The notes under the pieces were generated by a model. That model worked only from the letters and a program-made list of their open reading frames with translations. It was not told the DNA's origin and did not search any database. From a virus: a stretch of 25,477 nt of DNA. Positions 2,869 to 25,333 of the stretch are shown here, piece by piece. How positions within the stretch are numbered: position 1 is the stretch's first letter; every line of letters begins with the position of its first letter. The translations under genes were made by a program, and so were the position numbers. The DNA is taken from UHGV virus genome UHGV-2038699. The stretch is one strand, 5' to 3'.

Positions 2869-3548
2869 CAGAGTAATACTCCCCATGCCCCTACATCAAA
2901 ACCACTGATGTATTCGTTATCAATATCAAACCCAAAGAATTTAGAACCCTCGGAAGGTGTTTCAACCGAAGGCGTTTCAACATCACCGGCCCATACGCCA
3001 GCTGATTTAACGGTGAGATAGCCCTGTTTGATAGCGGCGATCAGTTCGAGAGACACATCAGAAATATCAGTTTCAGGGAAAACCCAGACCGAAATCGTCA
3101 TGTCCTGGTTGTCGACGATCTGCATCCTCAGGCCTGAGCCTGCGGTAGCAGCGTCAAGGATGGGAGGCAGAGAGTCGTTCCGACCGTCCCAGTTGTTGAT
3201 AGCGATTTTCGCTTTCAGAATGATGCGGTACGTCTCATCGCTTAGAGTCGTATAGCCAGAATCAGGATCATATGGCCCTTGCCAGATGCCCTGGTCATAC
3301 CCAAGCCCGTCAGTGTCCCAGCTGAAATAAACTCCGCTAATTGGCTGGCTGACTATGCGACTGCGTCCGATCCACAGACCGAGGATGTCGAGCTGTACAC
3401 CGACAGCAGTATCGATATCGAAGGCTGTTATAAGCCCTGACATAGTGCTGGACACATCAATCAGCGGGCGGGTGCTCAGATCTATATGGTCAAAAAAGAG
3501 TGGCTTGGTAGCGTGGTAGTTAGTGATCAGTTCGGTGTATTTGCTCAT
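2868..3548 (-). CDS. Baseplate/tail protein (P2 gpI / Mu gp48 / e14 YmfQ-like position)
   Basis: 226 aa; ATGA start/stop overlap with the J-like gene upstream; lies between the baseplate J-like gene and the tail fibre as in Mu/e14-type tails. Family assigned mainly by synteny. Confidence 0.5.
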
Positions 3549-4744
3549 GAGGTCACCGTGATACTGATATTCGCGGTGCTACAGGACGCTGAAGCATCAT
3601 AGGCAATATCAATGTTTGATGCCGATACGCTGCCAGACGACTTACCGATCAGCAGGTCGGTAATATCGTAATAGCGGGCATTCCCGCCGCTCACAACGCC
3701 GAGGTTTGCCGGGGAATAAATACGGCTCAGCAGAACGTCGTCGCCAATTGTTAGGCCATTTATATAATCGGCAACAGCCTGTTTAATCTGCTCGCCGATT
3801 TGAGAGGTATAGCCGGTAAAAACTTTCAGGGTAATGGCTACGAAAATTGGCACATCGGTAGAGCGTGAAAAACTGATGACGTGAGGATTACCGTAAGTAT
3901 CCGGCACCGTGACAGAAGTTGTCCCGTAGGTTGCCGTTCCCTGTCCTTTATTCCCCCTGATGGTCTGGGCTATTTCGGTAACATCCCCACCATCGACGAT
4001 GGCGGAAATTGAGTGCGGCGGTAGCCCGTTGCTGTCTGTTGTTCCTGTGTCGTTCTCATACAACTTGTGACGTGTCACGCCAGCAACGTTAGCTATTGCA
4101 CCGTCGACACCTTCAAACGGTGTGATCGATGGTAGCGCGACGCTTTGCGACTGGCGGATACGTAACTCCGCATCAGTTTCTGCTGGAGTGCCTACAGTAG
4201 CTGCAGCAGGATTGGTTACCGAAACCCAGCCACGAGTCGGTGTGTTAATGGTGGTAATAGTCCCGGCCATCGCAGCAACCGAACCGCTATTCGCACATGT
4301 GGCCGTCACCAGCACAGTACCATCAACGCCGATCGCTACACTTGCGGGAAAATTCCAGATAATGCCGTTTTTATCCCGTGCGGAGCCATTCGTGATAGTC
4401 GTGCCTGCCGTACCGGTTAACAGAAGGTCAGCAGTAGAGTTTGTCGCTACTTTTCGCGTGATCCCGTTAATTTTCACATTGTTGCTAAGCGCTGCGGCCT
4501 GCGCTGTCGTCGGTGAAAAAGAGTTGTAGATCTCGATAGCGGTATTGTTAGCGTCATGCACCGCAAGAGCCACCAGCGCGACCATTTGCCCATCTTTGCT
4601 GTCTGGTTCGAGGTAGGCATCACTACCGTAAATCTGCCTGAAATAGCTGGTCAGTGTATCAAGGATTGTCTGGTAATCAGGCGCACTAATCCCCTGGGCG
4701 GTTACCGTTGCCGATAGCCCCAGCGTGTCGAGGTTCAAAGCCAT
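3545..4744 (-). CDS. Baseplate J-like protein (P2 gpJ / Mu gp47-like)
   Basis: 399 aa, tightly packed between the W-like and I-like genes; size and position match baseplate wedge J proteins. Confidence 0.6.
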   Translation of the reverse strand: MALNLDTLGLSATVTAQGISAPDYQTILDTLTSYFRQIYGSDAYLEPDSKDGQMVALVALAVHDANNTAIEIYNSFSPTTAQAAALSNNVKINGITRKVATNSTADLLLTGTAGTTITNGSARDKNGIIWNFPASVAIGVDGTVLVTATCANSGSVAAMAGTITTINTPTRGWVSVTNPAAATVGTPAETDAELRIRQSQSVALPSITPFEGVDGAIANVAGVTRHKLYENDTGTTDSNGLPPHSISAIVDGGDVTEIAQTIRGNKGQGTATYGTTSVTVPDTYGNPHVISFSRSTDVPIFVAITLKVFTGYTSQIGEQIKQAVADYINGLTIGDDVLLSRIYSPANLGVVSGGNARYYDITDLLIGKSSGSVSASNIDIAYDASASCSTANISITVTS

Positions 4745-20054: not shown

Positions 20055-21676
20055 CAGGCCTGTCTCCCTAGCAGCTCCCAGATGTTCAGGGCTGAATTCA
20101 TTGGCGCGTAGCTGATCATCACCGAGTCGGCGAGGTTCGGCGACTTGGTGCCATCAGGCTGTTTATCAACAACGATTTTCCCCACGCCATTAATGGAGTA
20201 GGTCGGCTGCGACAGCTCAATGATGAGTTTGTCTTTGCTCGCCATGGCGCTGCTGATTGAGATGATTTCGTCCGGGTTGTAGGCCATGCCCTCAACCACG
20301 GCGCGATAGGTGTTCTGGAAAAGCTTGCGTAGCCACCACCAGCTTTGGGCCTTGGCGTTGGCGAAGAAGTCCTTGTTCAGGCGTGCGGCCTGTCCGTTGT
20401 CCCCGCGCACCGCTTCATCGTCCGGATCAAATACCGCGCCGCTACCACGAAACGGTGTGGCGAGTATTGACGGTCGTCGCGCAGCGTTACGCAGTTCGTT
20501 GATGGCGCGCGCATCGCCGCGAACGCCAGCACCCAGACCGTCCTCGTCGAAGCGAAACTCTTCGAGGTTGTCCTGTTCGCAAAAGCCGAAGACCTTCTCA
20601 ACAGACTGGTAAATGTCGCTGCCAACGCCGGACCATTCACGCACGTTCTCCAGAAGGAAGCCGTGACGGGTCGAAAAGGCATTTTTGTCCCGGCCTTCGT
20701 CGGCGACGTCCATCGCGCCCAGTCGCTTGCCCGTTGGCTGAATACCAAGTTTGATATGCGCGTCGACGGCAGCCTGTACCCAGTCGGACGGGATCAGGAC
20801 GCCTTCCGCAGATGCGCTGTAGTTCAGGTCAAGTTCCTGCGCCACCACCACCGGATTGTCGATTTTCTCGCACTCCCTGCGATACCACTCTTCATCCTTG
20901 CGCGGGTCATCTCGCCAGTGGAACGTGAATACTGGTATTTTTCCGCCGTGGCGCTTCTGCGCGAACGGGTTCGCCATGCCATTAACCGAGCTCAGGTCAA
21001 TACGGCAACGGGTGGTTTGCGACAGCGCCGCATCAATCAACAGAGGACGCTGGAGGAATGCAGCTTCATCCACCAGGTAGAGCGTGGTACGGTCACCACG
21101 TCCGATATTGTCGCCAGCCTCGCCTTTGATAACCGCGCCAGTATCTGGAAACTCAACGCGCATATACGGCGCATGCTTCTTCTCGTCCCACGAACCACGA
21201 AACTCTACAGGTAGTGTTTCCACGAACTTGCGCGCCTTCCAGAACAATGCTTTCGGGTCACCGGTGCTGTCGACGTATTCCTCTTTACGGGAGCCGAAAC
21301 CGATAACCATTTCTTTGTTGAAGAGACAAAGCGAGCAGGCCAGTCCGATCGCGGTCCAACTAAGTCCCATTTCACGGGATTTTTCGGTAATACCATTCTC
21401 CCGATTGCTCCAGCGTTCCATAATCCAGTGGATCCACTCCTCCTGCTTAGGGAAGAGTAAAAACGGAATGGTCACCGGCAGGCCATAATCAATATTACGC
21501 GGGTCCGTTGTCATGCCCCAGTCGATGATGAACTGAGCCGGATTGGTTCGGTAAAACTGTTTTAGTGCAGGCAATATTTCAGGATTCTGGCGAATGCGCT
21601 GTAGGCGTTCCATCCGCCATTCAAAAACCATCTGGTAATCAGGATGTTTAAAATCGAAGGGAAATGGTAACGGCAT
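20054..21676 (-). CDS. Terminase large subunit
   Basis: 540 aa downstream of the small terminase; Walker B-like LYLVDEAAF; size and position. Confidence 0.8.
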
Positions 21677-21678
21677 AC

Positions 21679-22230
21679 TTAGCCCATCATTTTTCTATAC
21701 GCCTCTGCAGCCTGCTCCGGCGTTAAGTTGGTAATTTCTGTTATGACTGGTCCTCCATCAGCGCCAGTAACTTCATTTTTGACGTTGTCTTTAAACGCCT
21801 GAACAGAAACATGACGCCCAAGCAATTCAAGATTTTTAACCTTATCAGGCCATTTGATTTTCTTCAGAAGTGCGGCGCTATCTGCAGATACCATCTCCAC
21901 GACATCCATTCCTGATAGCGTTGTGCGCCATACCTTAGGCCAGTCTTTGATGGGTTTTAGCTCACCGTTTTGCAGGAGAATGTCAAGCACATCCATCTGG
22001 TCGATTTCAATAAGGCGATTAAGTACATATTCTGCATTAATACCAACAAGATCATTGCGTTGCGCTTTCAGTTCGGCGATTCTTAACTTGATGTCAGGTT
22101 TTGACAGGTTTTCGGATGCGGTACGGTTAGCTGTCTTTGCGCTGTACCCCGCCCGAATAGCCGCTTGCGTGGCGTTTAAATCGATGAGGTACTCGCGACA
22201 GAACATTTCTTGCTTGTCGGTGAGTGCCAT
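21679..22230 (-). CDS. Terminase small subunit (Terminase_2-like)
   Basis: N-terminus [30 protein letters not shown] is characteristic of this small terminase family; AGGT RBS. Confidence 0.8.
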
Positions 22231-22252
22231 AAATTACCTTTAAGGATTTCAC

Positions 22253-22471
22253 ATGAGTGATGAATACAAACAGAAAATCGGCATTCCAGATGACCATACA
22301 CTGGAGCTTGTCTCTTCTAACTGGAAAGGAGCTCGAAAAGGTCAGGATACCGATGAATACCTTTACCGTGAGTTGGACGCTGCGGGAAATGTAGTGGCCA
22401 CTTATGAAATTAAAGATTCAACTTCTATATATCCACCATTCGGAAGATCTATCTCTTATAAGAAGGTCTAA
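22253..22471 (+). CDS. Hypothetical 72-aa protein, opposite strand to the late operon
   Basis: ATG with AAGGA RBS 7 nt upstream; start is only 22 bp from the divergent small-terminase start; hydrophilic, slightly acidic; no family recognised. Confidence 0.45.
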   Translation: MSDEYKQKIGIPDDHTLELVSSNWKGARKGQDTDEYLYRELDAAGNVVATYEIKDSTSIYPPFGRSISYKKV

Positions 22472-22962
22472 GCAACCAACTGACCAGCATGGCATTTCCG
22501 ATTGAACATTTACACGTCCAGGATAATGCCATGTCTATTCCACAGTTCTATCGTCACCTACCGATATTGGCGTGAACTACACGCACTTGACATCAGCAGG
22601 AGCGAAGTACGCCCCCTCCCGTCTAGGTCGCCAGCGGCACAAAGCCATTAACCAGCTCAGGCTGACGTCGTGGCATCTTGCCCGTTTACTCGCCGCCGTC
22701 GTTCGTATTCAGTTTGATGATGTAGATGTCGGACATTGAGAGCCTCTTTATCCGCTTGTGGGGATATCAGTTAAGTTATCCCGTGTAGGGTATAAGCCAT
22801 TGTCGAGACCACTCATTGAATGGCCTCTGCAATAACCGATGTCTTTCCATCAGTCCGCCACCACAAAGAATCTTTTTTGCCATCAGGCAGGAGGTTCATC
22901 TTTCAGTGGCTGCCAGTGTTATTTCCCCACTTACTGGCTTGGGTTGCTTCGCGGTACTGCCG

Positions 22963-23499
22963 TTAATTAGTGAGCCCGGGGATTACGGTTTGCCCGTGCT
23001 GTTCAAGGCGTTCAATTCTCGCCAGTAGCTGAGGCTTCTTAATTTTTCCCCAGCGATTGAGCAGGCGGCCAGACATACTGGCGACATCCTTCTCTTTCAT
23101 ATACTCCAGCATTATGGCGTTGCGTTCTGCTTCATAACTTTCGCTGTACTTACGGAGTTCTGCTGACATCCAGTTAAAGGCATTTATATAGGCCTCTTTA
23201 ACAGCGTCGGCTTTTGCGCCATTAAATCCCATGACCAGCATAACGAAGCCACTAAAGTCCATGCGGTAGTAAATCTGTTTCTTGTCGAAAATCCCTAACT
23301 CATTGATTTTTTCGGCAACGCAAAAATGCGCTCTCCGGAAATCTTCAGAGCAATGACAATTTTTCAGCGCCCTCAATACGTCCGCATGACGCTTACCAAA
23401 TGCCTTTGCGATCTGGAAGGTGTCAGTTACCGGTTGACCTTCTGCTGCGGTAACTAACTGGCGAAAGTCAAAGTCATGATTCACAATTAATTCATTCAT
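22963..23499 (-). CDS. Rha-family phage regulatory protein
   Basis: N-terminal motif ...TDTFQIAKAFGKRHADVLRAL typical of the Rha domain; ATG at 23499 chosen (track ORF extends to 23568). Confidence 0.6.
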   Translation of the reverse strand: MNELIVNHDFDFRQLVTAAEGQPVTDTFQIAKAFGKRHADVLRALKNCHCSEDFRRAHFCVAEKINELGIFDKKQIYYRMDFSGFVMLVMGFNGAKADAVKEAYINAFNWMSAELRKYSESYEAERNAIMLEYMKEKDVASMSGRLLNRWGKIKKPQLLARIERLEQHGQTVIPGLTN

Positions 23500-23650
23500 G
23501 GCGTTACCTGCTACTTCGAAATGAACCTTTGCCGCACAGGAAACCAGCCCACCGAGGCTCGCCAGCACTAACTGGTATCCTCAAAGGCCCATTCCAAAGG
23601 GTCAGGTTCGGTGGTTATTGTGCGCTGCGGTGCGCGGTGAAATACCTATA

Positions 23651-23676
23651 CAAAAACGCCCCGCATCTGCGAGGCA
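23651..23676 (-). terminator. Intrinsic terminator-like hairpin downstream of the lysis cassette
   Basis: On the minus transcript: GCCTCGC-agat-GCGGGGC followed by GUUUUU, about 40 nt after the Rz stop. Confidence 0.45.
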
Positions 23677-23717
23677 TTTTCCTGAAAGTCACTTGTTAAA
23701 TTTCAGTGAAATTAAAA

Positions 23718-24155
23718 TTATTTTAAGCACTGCGTCCTAATGTACTCCTGCAAGTAGTTAACCTGCGCGGTTATCCTGTCGATTCCACTTCGGAGACGGT
23801 AATAATTGAGTTCAGCATCTGCTGTAAGTCTTGGGCTTTCTCCATCGCCCATGCTGCTGGCTCCGGTCGTTGACTTTGCACAGGTGGCGGCGACTTGCAG
23901 GCGCTTACGCCCAGCAGAAACATCAGCACGGAGGCTTTCGATAGTCGCGTTAGCATCAGCAAGCTCCTTTGTATATCTGGCGTCGAGTTCTGCTACGTCA
24001 CGTTGACGCTTCTGCATGTCAGCGATGATGGATGCGGCCTTATCGCGCTGTTCTTTGTAGGCGATGGCGTTATCACGGTAATGATTAACAGCCCATAACA
24101 GGCAGACGATGATGCAGATAACCAGAGCGGAGATAATCGCGGTTACTCTGCTCAT
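23718..24155 (-). CDS. Rz: i-spanin Rz
   Basis: N-terminal TM anchor [19 protein letters not shown] and coiled-coil periplasmic domain; ATGA overlap with R; N-terminus close to lambda Rz as recalled. Confidence 0.85.
23771..23956 (-). CDS. Rz1: o-spanin Rz1 (lipoprotein, embedded in the +1 frame of Rz)
   Basis: ATG at 23956 with AAGGAG RBS; lipobox VSAC; proline-rich mature part; fully inside Rz in a different frame. Confidence 0.75.
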
Positions 24156-25177: not shown

Positions 25178-25253
25178 TGGTGCTGGTTAACGGACTTGAA
25201 CCGCTACCCATTCGCTTACAAGGCGACTGCTCTACCATTGGAGCTAAACCAGC
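25178..25253 (-). tRNA. tRNA gene, anticodon UGU (Thr) by manual folding
   Basis: 76 nt with encoded CCA; 7-bp perfect acceptor stem, D-loop with GG, T-loop TTCAAGT, anticodon loop CTTGTAA. Confidence 0.6.
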
Positions 25254-25258
25254 ATGTT

Positions 25259-25333
25259 TGGCGGGACAGCGTGGGCTCGAACCACGATAAGAAGGTTAAC
25301 AGCCTTCCGTAATGACCTTTATACGACTGACCC
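25259..25333 (-). tRNA. tRNA-like gene, anticodon GUU (Asn) by manual folding; possibly degenerate
   Basis: 75 nt with CCA; T-arm CGTGG-TTCGAGC-CCACG; anticodon arm GAAGG-CTGTTAA-CCTTC; one mismatch each in acceptor and D stems. Confidence 0.45.

Follow-up and report, generated by a model that had tools for sequence, protein, structure and literature searches.

In a viral genome window of 25,477 nucleotides (the whole stretch of DNA analysed), which represents an E. coli prophage, we find that positions 22472-22962, read in the late-transcription (minus) direction, consist of a conserved untranslated element followed by a pseudogene and a hairpin spacer. Taken as a whole, this stretch is best explained as the leftover of a slot for accessory genes ('morons'), built of three parts and with a hairpin that punctuates the late mRNA, a reading that we regard as probable. 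The initial annotation had proposed a decayed gene and, alternatively, a structured RNA. The decayed gene explains 22535-22736 (minus strand), some 200 bp of the 491, but not 22747-22962, which is the conserved untranslated element, and the structured RNA was partly right, as a covariation-supported RNA hairpin is present in 22747-22962.

Flanking genes and position of the stretch

The 491 bp stretch is bounded in the six-frame ORF list by two stop codons, those of a plus-strand 72-aa ORF (22253-22471) and of the minus-strand rha gene (22963-23568). Just one ORF of at least 60 aa touches it, a 70-aa frame with a TTG start (22816-23028, plus strand) that lies antisense to late transcription and extends over the 3' end of rha; this agrees with the earlier statement that nothing of this length is present except one weak antisense frame. 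Because the neighboring late genes (TerS, TerL, portal and lysis genes) are tightly packed or overlapping in the same list, a gap of 0.5 kb is unusual for this operon. A gap of this size without ORFs is unremarkable in random DNA. On six E. coli chromosomes that carry a 100% identical sequence, the automatic NCBI annotation pipeline PGAP leaves the stretch without a gene or, inconsistently, predicts just a 55-aa plus-strand ORF; the latter call, made in one identical genome, is antisense to the pseudogene and should be dropped from annotation.

The gap is preceded by a last intact late-strand gene, which codes for a Rha-family protein of 201 aa (22963-23568, minus strand; Pfam Phage_pRha and ORF11CD3, phrog_518). 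The first packaging gene past the gap codes for the small terminase subunit TerS (21679-22230, minus strand, as annotated by RefSeq in identical genomes), whose homologue in the related loci L148 and L152 is Pfam Terminase_2. Between TerS and the gap, the plus-strand 72-aa ORFan (22253-22471) runs against the late operon and diverges from the start codon of TerS (22230). It has 26 homologous clusters from E. coli, Cronobacter and Yersinia that are nearly all 72 aa long (mostly 72-81 aa) and 58-99% identical, and L152 has the same arrangement. Cargo such as bor had been suggested for this position; this intact opposite-strand ORFan lies just outside of the stretch, and there is no intact example within it. 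Specifically, 22472-22962 contains no intact ORF and 21600-23800 contains no sigma-70-like promoter, so that the stretch is not an intact moron cassette.

The position of the stretch matches a known variable moron slot of phage P22, the site of pid, which is located between 'orf25' and orf80 (Cenens et al. 2013, PMC3573128; Wolput et al. 2022, PMC8835761). As in the window, the P22 pid locus is in the late operon after rha and the orf25 region (equivalent to element B1, described below) and before the packaging genes. Both pid and the 72-aa ORF of the window are small opposite-strand ORFans that diverge from a TerS start, P22 retains the decayed N-terminus of a TerS homologous to that of the window, and related phages have either no insert or a different insert in the pid slot. 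There are also several differences. The sequences of Pid and of the window's 72-aa ORF product are unrelated, only the window additionally has a PHROG 6581 pseudogene and element B2 in complete form, and the published work on pid (PMC3573128, PMC8835761) does not describe the B1/B2 element or its hairpin. Cargo at this slot in phage Huey carries 'anti-CRISPR' labels, which are not corroborated by PHROGs, where all matches are of unknown function.

A dead copy of a PHROG 6581 gene

Positions 22736-22535 (minus strand) are a dead copy of a gene for a small beta-barrel protein of 67-72 aa (PHROG 6581), with an ATG at 22736-22734 and the ancestral stop codon TAG at 22537-22535. Once repaired, the translation matches phrog_6581 over the full length, aligning with positions 1-59 of the 66 in the profile at an E value of 3.3e-27 (1e-35 for the intact CobraSix protein) and is 90% identical to intact 72-aa proteins (P0001), with intact homologues of 67-72 aa forming 234 clusters. 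The two peptides quoted in the initial annotation, MSDIYIIKLNTNDGGE and MPRRQPELVNGFVPLAT, read exactly on the minus strand and are consecutive pieces of this one gene, which is interrupted in turn by TAA, TAG, a 2-nt deletion and a second TAG. Comparison with intact homologues, the check proposed at that time, rebuilt the ancestral frame, as the pseudogene DNA aligns codon for codon with the intact genes of CobraSix, L148 and L152. In these minus-strand alignments, three sense codons of the intact homologues are stops in the window: TAC or TTC at codon 17 is TAA (22686-22688), GAG or GAA at codon 38 is TAG (22623-22625), and CAG or CAA at codon 55 is TAG (22577-22579). The fourth lesion is the loss of 2 nt in a G-run (22611-22619, near 22616-22612), where the window reads GGGA-GGGGGC-G and the intact genes read GGGTGAGTGGCTG; sister E. 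coli prophages are missing only 1 nt in the same run. The stretch is also not a conserved packaging site devoid of protein homology in every frame, a finding that would have spoken against a decayed gene, since the pseudogene matches PHROG 6581.

The surroundings of the dead gene are likewise those of the family. A Shine-Dalgarno sequence, AAGAGG (22743-22748, minus strand), read from the sequence 6 nt ahead of the ATG, is kept in the intact homologues of L148 and L152. As in these two loci, the gene follows post-lysis cargo and precedes TerS. The neighbors in L152 are the same as in the window, namely TerS, a homologue of the 72-aa ORF, an intact PHROG 6581 gene and, further upstream, Rha, and DNA homology to L148 and L152 reaches into the flanks of the PHROG 6581 gene. 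The window copy thus resembles the members of this family, small phage proteins of unknown function, in its profile match and in its place upstream of TerS; it differs from the intact members in that four lesions interrupt its frame, from which the protein can no longer be made. The structure model of the family is a confident five-stranded small barrel (pLDDT 79) whose only matches, with DUF903 lipoproteins and with Hfq-like folds, are weak (E about 6e-3).

Each of the three stop codons is one base from a sense codon, and the decayed allele, found without a gene call in 16 of the 69 E. coli genomes having a relative, persists unchanged in these 16. Both observations would fit a small gene that is still functional through stop-codon read-through or recoding. 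We consider this extremely improbable, given that read-through would have to deal with stop codons of two kinds (TAA and TAG) plus a 2-nt deletion, that the 1-nt indel of the sister prophages at the same run indicates relaxed constraint, and that the tRNA genes of the window are only an ordinary tRNA-Thr(UGU) and tRNA-Asn(GUU). The pseudogene itself would do nothing. It represents routine prophage decay, and its value lies in annotation.

Conserved untranslated element B and its late-strand hairpin

Ahead of the dead gene in the late direction is a 227-nt untranslated element, element B (22973-22747, minus strand), that is defined by homology across phages and has two parts. B1 (22838-22973, minus strand) comprises 136 almost invariant nt with shared boundaries and covers the last three codons and the stop codon of rha. 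B2 (22747-22836, minus strand) comprises 90 conserved untranslated nt within homology boundaries and ends just before the ribosome binding site of the following gene. Element B is present in 185-200 phage records, including P22, HK022, HK97, Sf6 and HK620, with an identity of 90-98%. Of the 5,426 complete E. coli genomes, approximately 2,300 (roughly 40%) have it. The left edge of B1 (around 22973) is shared by phages with unrelated upstream genes, the B1/B2 junction at 22838/22836 is a common breakpoint at which Sf6, Huey, Emek and HK544 have inserted cargo, and the boundaries of B2 are shown by HK022, Sf6, epsilon34, Sf101, Chlobot and others. B2 is located downstream of many unrelated cargo genes, and a B2 covariance model matches the window at 22762-22836 with 100 bits. 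The conservation and the boundaries of B1 and B2 are thus shown. The late region of the DLP12 prophage of E. coli K-12 has no element B, so K-12 transcript maps cannot help in its study.

These same distributions bear on the cos/pac alternative of the initial annotation. A stretch with stable hairpins and an inverted repeat directly upstream of the terminase genes might be taken for the packaging recognition site of this phage, but we found no evidence of cos or pac in 22472-22962, and element B does not covary with terminase type, occurring with at least three unrelated terminase/packaging types. Specifically, element B is shared by the cos phages HK022 and HK97, in which cos follows some 0.8 kb later, and by P22, Sf6 and ST64T, which package by the headful mechanism and have a different TerS. 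Note that pac of the headful packagers P22 and Sf6 is inside gene 3. Furthermore, the TerS-adjacent segment (22231-22572) is swapped for other cargo in relatives with the same TerS type, and the remainder of the stretch is the pseudogene, which has protein homology. A role as cos or pac is therefore very improbable.

We also analyzed the 35-codon frame MAKKILCGGGLMERHRLLQRPFNEWSRQWLIPYTG (22776-22883, minus strand), which corresponds to the 'orf25' region of P22 and, in ST64T, to the N-terminal extension of orf118. If this frame were a real small protein or leader peptide (22883-22776), then it would explain the conservation of the element. The frame is indeed open in most copies, with 35 plus 7 of 63 sequences giving one of two near-identical peptides; it is full-length in 138 phage records by tblastn, and it continues into DUF2560 in ST64T and phage L. 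However, neither the start nor the frame is preserved among the 63 distinct copies, five of which have AAG for ATG, four are frameshifted and three are truncated by premature stops. Variable sites at codon positions 1, 2 and 3 number 9, 5 and 10, which is no third-position bias, and the first 57 nt are equally invariant at all three positions. In addition, there is no Shine-Dalgarno sequence ahead of the ATG, where the sequence reads CCUCCUGCCUG, no match to PHROG or Pfam, and Sf6-type phages keep only the first 15 codons. This shows that the frame is without coding constraint; we judge it to be a non-gene and the small-protein explanation to be improbable.

Element B carries an RNA hairpin, H4 (22795-22837, minus strand). 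Its lower stem pairs 22830-22837 with 22795-22802, a 2x2 internal loop opposes CA (22828-22829) to GA (22803-22804), and its upper stem pairs 22818-22827 with 22805-22814 below an apical AAU loop (22815-22817), giving the general form YAUUR-CA-stem-loop-stem-GA-YAAUG. In the H4 alignment 98.5% of the cells are paired, four pairs are changed on both sides and the covariation score is reached by none of 500 shuffles, with the caveats that the compensatory changes mostly separate a few sequence families, and so represent few independent events, and that the 3' arm of the first alignment is partly fixed by the search pattern with which the copies were gathered. A set of 41 distinct copies, covering at least four stem families, has 566 of 574 cells paired, versus 511 +/- 4 after shuffling, and further stem families are found in L039, L148 and L152. 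The CA/GA loop beside the stems is invariant while the stems change. The structure is also strand-specific, with fold z-scores of -3.5 to -7.2 on the late strand versus -0.9 on the other strand, where the G-U pairs of H4 become C-A mismatches. H4 is thus shown to be a late-strand RNA hairpin, its pairing kept through compensatory substitutions on one strand only. An alternative pairing of the H4 5' arm with AAUGGCUU, 95% compatible, was set aside as that side is fixed by the search pattern.

Second copies of H4, found with the covariance model, directly follow cargo-gene stop codons in HK022, Sf6, ST64T, ES18, CobraSix and L152. The H4 of the window does not directly follow a stop codon, being about 125 nt after that of rha. 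A second hairpin, H5 (GGGAUA-10 nt-UAUCCC; 22761-22782, minus strand), is weakly supported, with few variable pairs of which some are broken. Neither is a late-strand intrinsic terminator in the window, as H4 is followed by UAUACCC and H5 by CACAAG, and a scan found no minus-strand terminator in the stretch. In many relatives H5 is followed by UUUU, where the window has CACA, and its status as a terminator may therefore differ between copies. B1 has a fold that is not unusually stable (z -0.8); a B1 consensus fold with a long-range AAGCC/GGCUU closing helix can be drawn, but its columns are invariant and hence uninformative.

The third part of the stretch, past the dead gene, is a hairpin spacer (22534-22472, minus strand) that faces the 3' end of the convergent intact 72-aa ORFan. 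The stable late-strand hairpin here, between the dead gene and the ORFan (22466-22560, minus strand), has a core inverted repeat of 22488-22496 with 22525-22533 and folds at -33.9 kcal/mol (z -4.1) on the minus strand versus -18.6 kcal/mol (z -1.9) on the plus strand. Its outer 8 bp are retained in the intact counterpart L152.

No Rfam family passes its threshold in the stretch. In a search of the whole window with Rfam 15, only two tRNAs reach the gathering score, and a permissive search of 22200-23100 with E values up to 10 gave nothing credible, including for AgvB, AsxR, Esr41 and STnc100. The published prophage small RNAs AgvB, AsxR, Pas and STnc6030 are either located elsewhere or are Rfam families without a match. 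Positions 22908-22981 (minus strand) weakly resemble Proteo-phage-1 (RF03044), with which they share the motifs AAGCCnGUnAGUG and GAAAnAACACnGGCAGCC, at 17.6 bits (E 0.7-2), where the gathering score is 42. Two conserved single-stranded motifs of the family are thus present in the 5' part of B1, which likewise occurs in a phage context; however, the family hairpin is not reproduced in B1. As the resemblance is also absent from 15 related loci and from ES18, we treat it as a lead only.

It is quite improbable that the conserved element acts instead on the opposite strand, either as a terminator or barrier for opposite-strand cargo such as the 72-aa ORF or P22 pid, or as a small-RNA gene. Opposite-strand cargo is common at this position, and a pattern scan of the anti-late strand identified a terminator-like hairpin, UUUUUUGCC-AUCA-GGCAGGAGG followed by UUCAUCUUUC (22873-22894, plus strand), which coincides with the minus-strand 'terminator' annotated in the phage L record at the equivalent spot and strand. 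However, the scan returned three such sites versus 2.5 expected by chance, which is not significant, and a promoter scan found no site on either strand. Furthermore, P22 pid has its own proven terminator adjoining its ORF, most phages with element B (HK022, Sf6, epsilon34) have no opposite-strand gene downstream, the covarying hairpin exists only on the late strand, and no small-RNA family of Rfam matches.

Proposed role in the late mRNA and in cargo exchange

We propose that H4 would act in the long late mRNA as intercistronic punctuation. Specifically, it may be a 3' protective hairpin or a processing hairpin, like the intergenic REP-repeat hairpins of E. coli or like RNase III sites, and such punctuation would give the packaging and head segment a fate independent of that of the lysis and cargo segments. 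Since both are conserved, the hairpin and B1 could double as homologous crossover points for the exchange of cargo cassettes. Overall, the hairpin probably punctuates or stabilizes the late mRNA and marks the boundaries of cargo cassettes, a mechanism that we infer by analogy.

Intercistronic hairpins of the REP type occur in E. coli operons, and RNase III processing hairpins occur in the mRNAs of phages T7 and lambda. H4 is likewise a stable hairpin in a polycistronic mRNA that is repeated at several gene boundaries, its upper and lower stems are likewise separated by a small internal loop and add up to about 18 bp, and its copies in relatives are likewise directly after an upstream stop codon. 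In contrast, H4 resembles neither REP nor the T7 R-sites in sequence, and the flanks YAUUR-CA ... GA-YAAUG are specific to its motif.

The extreme conservation of element B could in part stem from recent horizontal spread rather than from selection. A stronger version, in which element B is conserved only through recent recombinational spread as a neutral 'linker' at mosaic boundaries with no RNA function, is unlikely, though it deserves more weight than the other alternatives considered here. Its edges do coincide with mosaic junctions, identity is 93-98% even across phages of Salmonella, Shigella and E. coli, and B1 is almost without the variation needed to test structure. Neutral DNA, however, would not show changes on both sides that keep pairing in several stem families beside an invariant CA/GA loop. 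The structure is also strand-specific. The Sf6 record annotates 'boundary sequences' (bsq) elsewhere in the same region, which could be taken as a precedent for such linkers, and like B1 and B2 these are short conserved stretches that join otherwise unrelated modules. They differ in that the bsq annotated by Sf6 in this region exclude B1 and B2, and in that a part of element B has evidence of selected RNA structure beyond sequence conservation.

The dead gene is ordinary, whereas the H4 motif seems to be undescribed. It is possible, although we hold this only tentatively, that the hairpin together with the invariant B1 constitutes an undescribed class of cis-acting RNA signal by which accessory-gene cassettes are delimited within lambdoid and P22-like late operons. 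Element B is at present unannotated or inconsistently annotated (as 'orf25', as an N-terminal extension of DUF2560 or as a 'terminator') in hundreds of phage records, and it marks the slot of exchangeable lambdoid-phage cargo such as pid. A covarying hairpin after cargo stop codons is a testable handle on the punctuation of a 20-kb late transcript, and the H4 motif is a practical landmark for locating accessory genes. If such a class of signal does exist, then it would set the ends and the stability of the cargo and head-gene mRNA segments and define the sites at which cargo is swapped, and its motif would be usable as a sequence tag with which to search thousands of prophages for new accessory genes, anti-defence genes among them.

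The gap within the late operon

The window covers the late region, transcribed on the minus strand, of a prophage of lambdoid or P22-like type; six complete E. coli chromosomes, of dog, pig and human origin, carry the same sequence at 100% identity. Its minus-strand genes are tRNA-Asn and tRNA-Thr (25333-25178), holin (24935-24612), lysozyme (24628-24152), Rz with embedded Rz1 (24155-23718) and a Rha-family gene (23568-22963), followed beyond the gap (22962-22472) and a plus-strand 72-aa ORF (22253-22471) by TerS (22230-21679), TerL (21676-20054) and portal (20054-18585). The tRNA-Thr(UGU) and tRNA-Asn(GUU) genes (25178-25333, minus) head the late operon just upstream of holin, a feature shared with BTP1, where the late operon starts directly after two tRNA genes (PMC7067206); tRNA pairs with identical scores are also present in two related loci, L022 and L031. 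The Rha gene (22963-23568, minus) codes for 201 aa from a GTG start, the same length as P22 Rha (other relatives, 172-242 aa), and PGAP calls it a frameshifted pseudogene in one of the identical RefSeq genomes.

As the initial annotation stated, the gap at 22472-22962 has no credible ORF. It is flanked by two stop codons, its sole ORF of at least 60 aa is antisense (70 aa, TTG start, 22816-23028, plus) and overlaps the 3' end of rha, and both peptides quoted in that annotation were located within it. PGAP leaves the gap unannotated in most identical genomes; the 55-aa plus-strand ORF that it calls in one RefSeq genome (WP_187767215.1, 22572-22739) is probably spurious, because it runs antisense to a pseudogene and only some of the identical genomes have the call. 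The initial reading of the whole gap as a decayed gene proved half right, since the left part is indeed a pseudogene of the PHROG 6581 family of small phage proteins, whereas the right part is a conserved untranslated element. We hold this anatomical description with high confidence.

A dead PHROG 6581 gene in the left part

A sensitive nucleotide search with 22440-22780 matched Enterobacter phages only, and the CobraSix match falls inside an annotated gene, the last 72 codons of which encode MSDTYIIKLTTNDGGEYTGKMSRRQPELVNGFVPLATETGEWLYFAPADVKRVQFTPVPAEQ... The corresponding reading in the window is MSDIYIIKLNTNDGGE-stop-TGKMPRRQPELVNGFVPLAT-stop-TGGG-frameshift-YFAPADVKCV-stop-FTPISVGDDRTVE-stop. 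When repaired, this product matches the whole profile of PHROG 6581, to which no function is assigned there (E 3e-27), and it has 234 clusters of intact 67-72-aa homologues from Enterobacter, Citrobacter, Klebsiella, Salmonella and E. coli, the best being 90% identical and none having a Pfam domain. DNA alignment to intact homologues placed the lesions, all on the minus strand, and shows that the gene is dead: a TAA at 22688-22686 (TAC or TTC in intact homologues), a TAG at 22625-22623 (GAG or GAA), a G-run lacking 2 nt at about 22616-22612 (intact, GAGTGGCTG) and a TAG at 22579-22577 (CAG or CAA). The ancestral stop at 22537-22535 (minus) is retained, as in the intact homologues. The most telling comparison is the metagenomic contig L152, which has the same neighborhood as the window, with TerS, a 92%-identical homologue of the plus-strand 72-aa ORF and an intact 67-aa gene, and Rha further upstream.

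The three nonsense codons recur in three further E. coli prophages, which differ in upstream cargo and whose G-run is short by just 1 nt. Since the nonsense codons are common while the G-run loss differs (1 nt versus 2 nt), the gene must have died before these prophage lineages split and then drifted. Relatives of the gene occur in 69 of 5,426 complete E. coli genomes, 16 of which carry the dead allele without a gene call; in most of the remainder the copy has diverged and is annotated as an intact hypothetical protein. AlphaFold models the intact family (pLDDT 79) as a small beta-barrel of five strands, and because its matches, to DUF903 lipoproteins and Hfq-like folds, are all weak, we assign no ancestral function. 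The spacer at 22534-22472, which separates the dead gene from the convergent 72-aa gene, folds on the late strand into a stable hairpin (-33.9 kcal/mol, z -4.1), the outer 8 bp of which are retained in L152.

A conserved, modular and untranslated element in the right part

Phage matches in a similarity search of 22400-23000 were confined to the right 240 bp, where 185 records from Salmonella, Escherichia and Shigella phages show 90-98% identity. Searched alone with sensitive settings, 22747-22973 recovered 200 phage records, and a wider query matched ~2,300 of the 5,426 E. coli genomes, nearly all via this conserved segment. Its 5' edge stays at ~22973 with any of rha, a GIY-YIG nuclease, a KilA-N protein, HK022 gene 73 or Rz as the preceding gene, and its 3' edge at 22747 lies just ahead of the ribosome-binding site of whichever gene follows, be it DUF2560/orf80 in P22-like phages, the PHROG 6581 gene in the window or others elsewhere. 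A common breakpoint at 22838/22836 divides the element into B1 (136 nt) and B2 (90 nt). Cargo is inserted exactly there in Sf6 (gene 66), Huey, Emek and HK544, and in viral contigs B2 alone is found after many unrelated cargo genes. The gene 66-type cargo at this junction (Sf6, L014 860-1240; Huey, L015 135-635 and 870-1250) is called 'anti-CRISPR protein' in the Huey record, a label that the PHROGs entry for the family, of unknown function, does not back. B1 itself appears modular, because homology to ES18 (L155 838-950), where a hairpin copy after rha precedes it, passes to a different downstream sequence after the first ~57 nt; SPN3UB, S137 and 29485 match the same ~57 nt.

The element contains a 35-codon frame (22883-22776, minus), part of which is annotated as 'orf25' in P22 and which continues into DUF2560 as 'orf118' in ST64T and phage L. 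We rejected this frame as a protein-coding gene. Among 63 distinct full copies, AAG replaces ATG in five, an A-run is frameshifted in four and an early stop occurs in three; variable sites are distributed 9/5/10 over codon positions 1/2/3, with all three positions equally invariant in the first 57 nt; and the frame has neither a Shine-Dalgarno sequence ahead of its ATG nor a protein-family match.

A packaging site, which had been offered as an alternative for the gap, is very unlikely, as the element is common to the cos phages HK022 and HK97 and to the headful packagers P22, Sf6 and ST64T with their unrelated small terminases, and relatives whose TerS is of the same type have other cargo instead of the TerS-adjoining segment (22231-22572). 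No sigma-70-like promoter was detected and terminator-like sites are no commoner than expected by chance; one, at 22873-22894 on the anti-late strand, lies where phage L annotates a terminator. No Rfam family reached threshold for the element. The 5' part of B1 scores 17.6 bits against Proteo-phage-1 (RF03044; gathering score 42), with single-stranded motifs in common, a resemblance that we treat as a lead only because the relatives and ES18 give no score.

The gap occupies the position of the P22 locus between 'orf25' and orf80 and closely parallels it. In P22, B1 and part of B2 are followed by pid, an accessory gene on the opposite strand, and then by the decayed N-terminal end of a TerS, a homologue of the TerS in the window. 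In the window the place of pid is taken by the 72-aa ORF (22253-22471, plus), which has no sequence relationship to pid and is divergent from TerS, with its start 22 bp from the TerS start codon. It belongs to a conserved ORFan family (26 clusters, mostly 72-81 aa, from E. coli, Cronobacter and Yersinia) that has no Pfam or PHROG match. In other relatives this place holds DUF6953 and DUF2158 genes or a membrane-like protein of 90 aa. A further case of opposite-strand cargo at exactly this position is the E. coli prophage L148, which has DUF6953 (79 aa) and DUF2158 (73 aa) genes at 3217-3722 between its intact PHROG 6581 gene and TerS. Note that P22 packages with gene 3, which is unrelated to its TerS relic beside pid (L009 1983-2171; NC_002371.2, about 40744-40932), and that the pid promoter, as placed by the published TSS coordinate (40,880), falls within this relic.

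A late-strand hairpin under selection

A long hairpin (22795-22837) forms in B2 on the late strand. Its 8-bp lower stem and 10-bp upper stem are separated by a 2x2 internal loop (CA opposite GA), and its apical loop has 3-6 nt. Fold z-scores for three sequence variants were -3.5, -3.9 and -7.2, and the reverse complement (z -0.9) does not form the hairpin. When 31 distinct B2 copies were aligned, 98.5% of cells were paired, four pairs were altered on both sides and several others alternated among U-A, U-G and C-G; the covariation score was reached by 0 of 500 shuffles and slid controls fell to 30-50% pairing. A covariance model built from this alignment found one copy in the window (100 bits) and, in related loci, second copies with quite different stems, located immediately 3' to the stop codon that ends an upstream cargo gene in HK022, Sf6, ST64T, ES18, CobraSix and L152. 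In 41 distinct hairpins, which represent at least four stem families, pairing holds in 566 of 574 cells, compared with 511 +/- 4 after shuffling (0 of 1,000 shuffles), with the compensatory changes mostly dividing a few families, so that independent events are few, and with the 3' arm of the first hairpin alignment partly fixed by the collection pattern. The flanks YAUUR-CA ... GA-YAAUG are essentially invariant. These results show that the late-strand hairpin is under selection, and it belongs to the late transcript because its many G-U pairs would turn into C-A mismatches on the opposite strand. The B1 sequence is too invariant for a covariation test.

Late transcripts running from the lysis to the packaging genes would carry the B2 hairpin as intercistronic punctuation, possibly as a 3' protective or processing structure by analogy with REP hairpins or RNase III sites; we regard this specific role as tentative and rather doubtful. 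The conserved B1 and B2 segments may also provide homologous crossover points for exchange of cargo cassettes. The pseudogene is of an ordinary kind. Both the conserved element and its hairpin motif seem not to have been described before, and they hold moderate interest.
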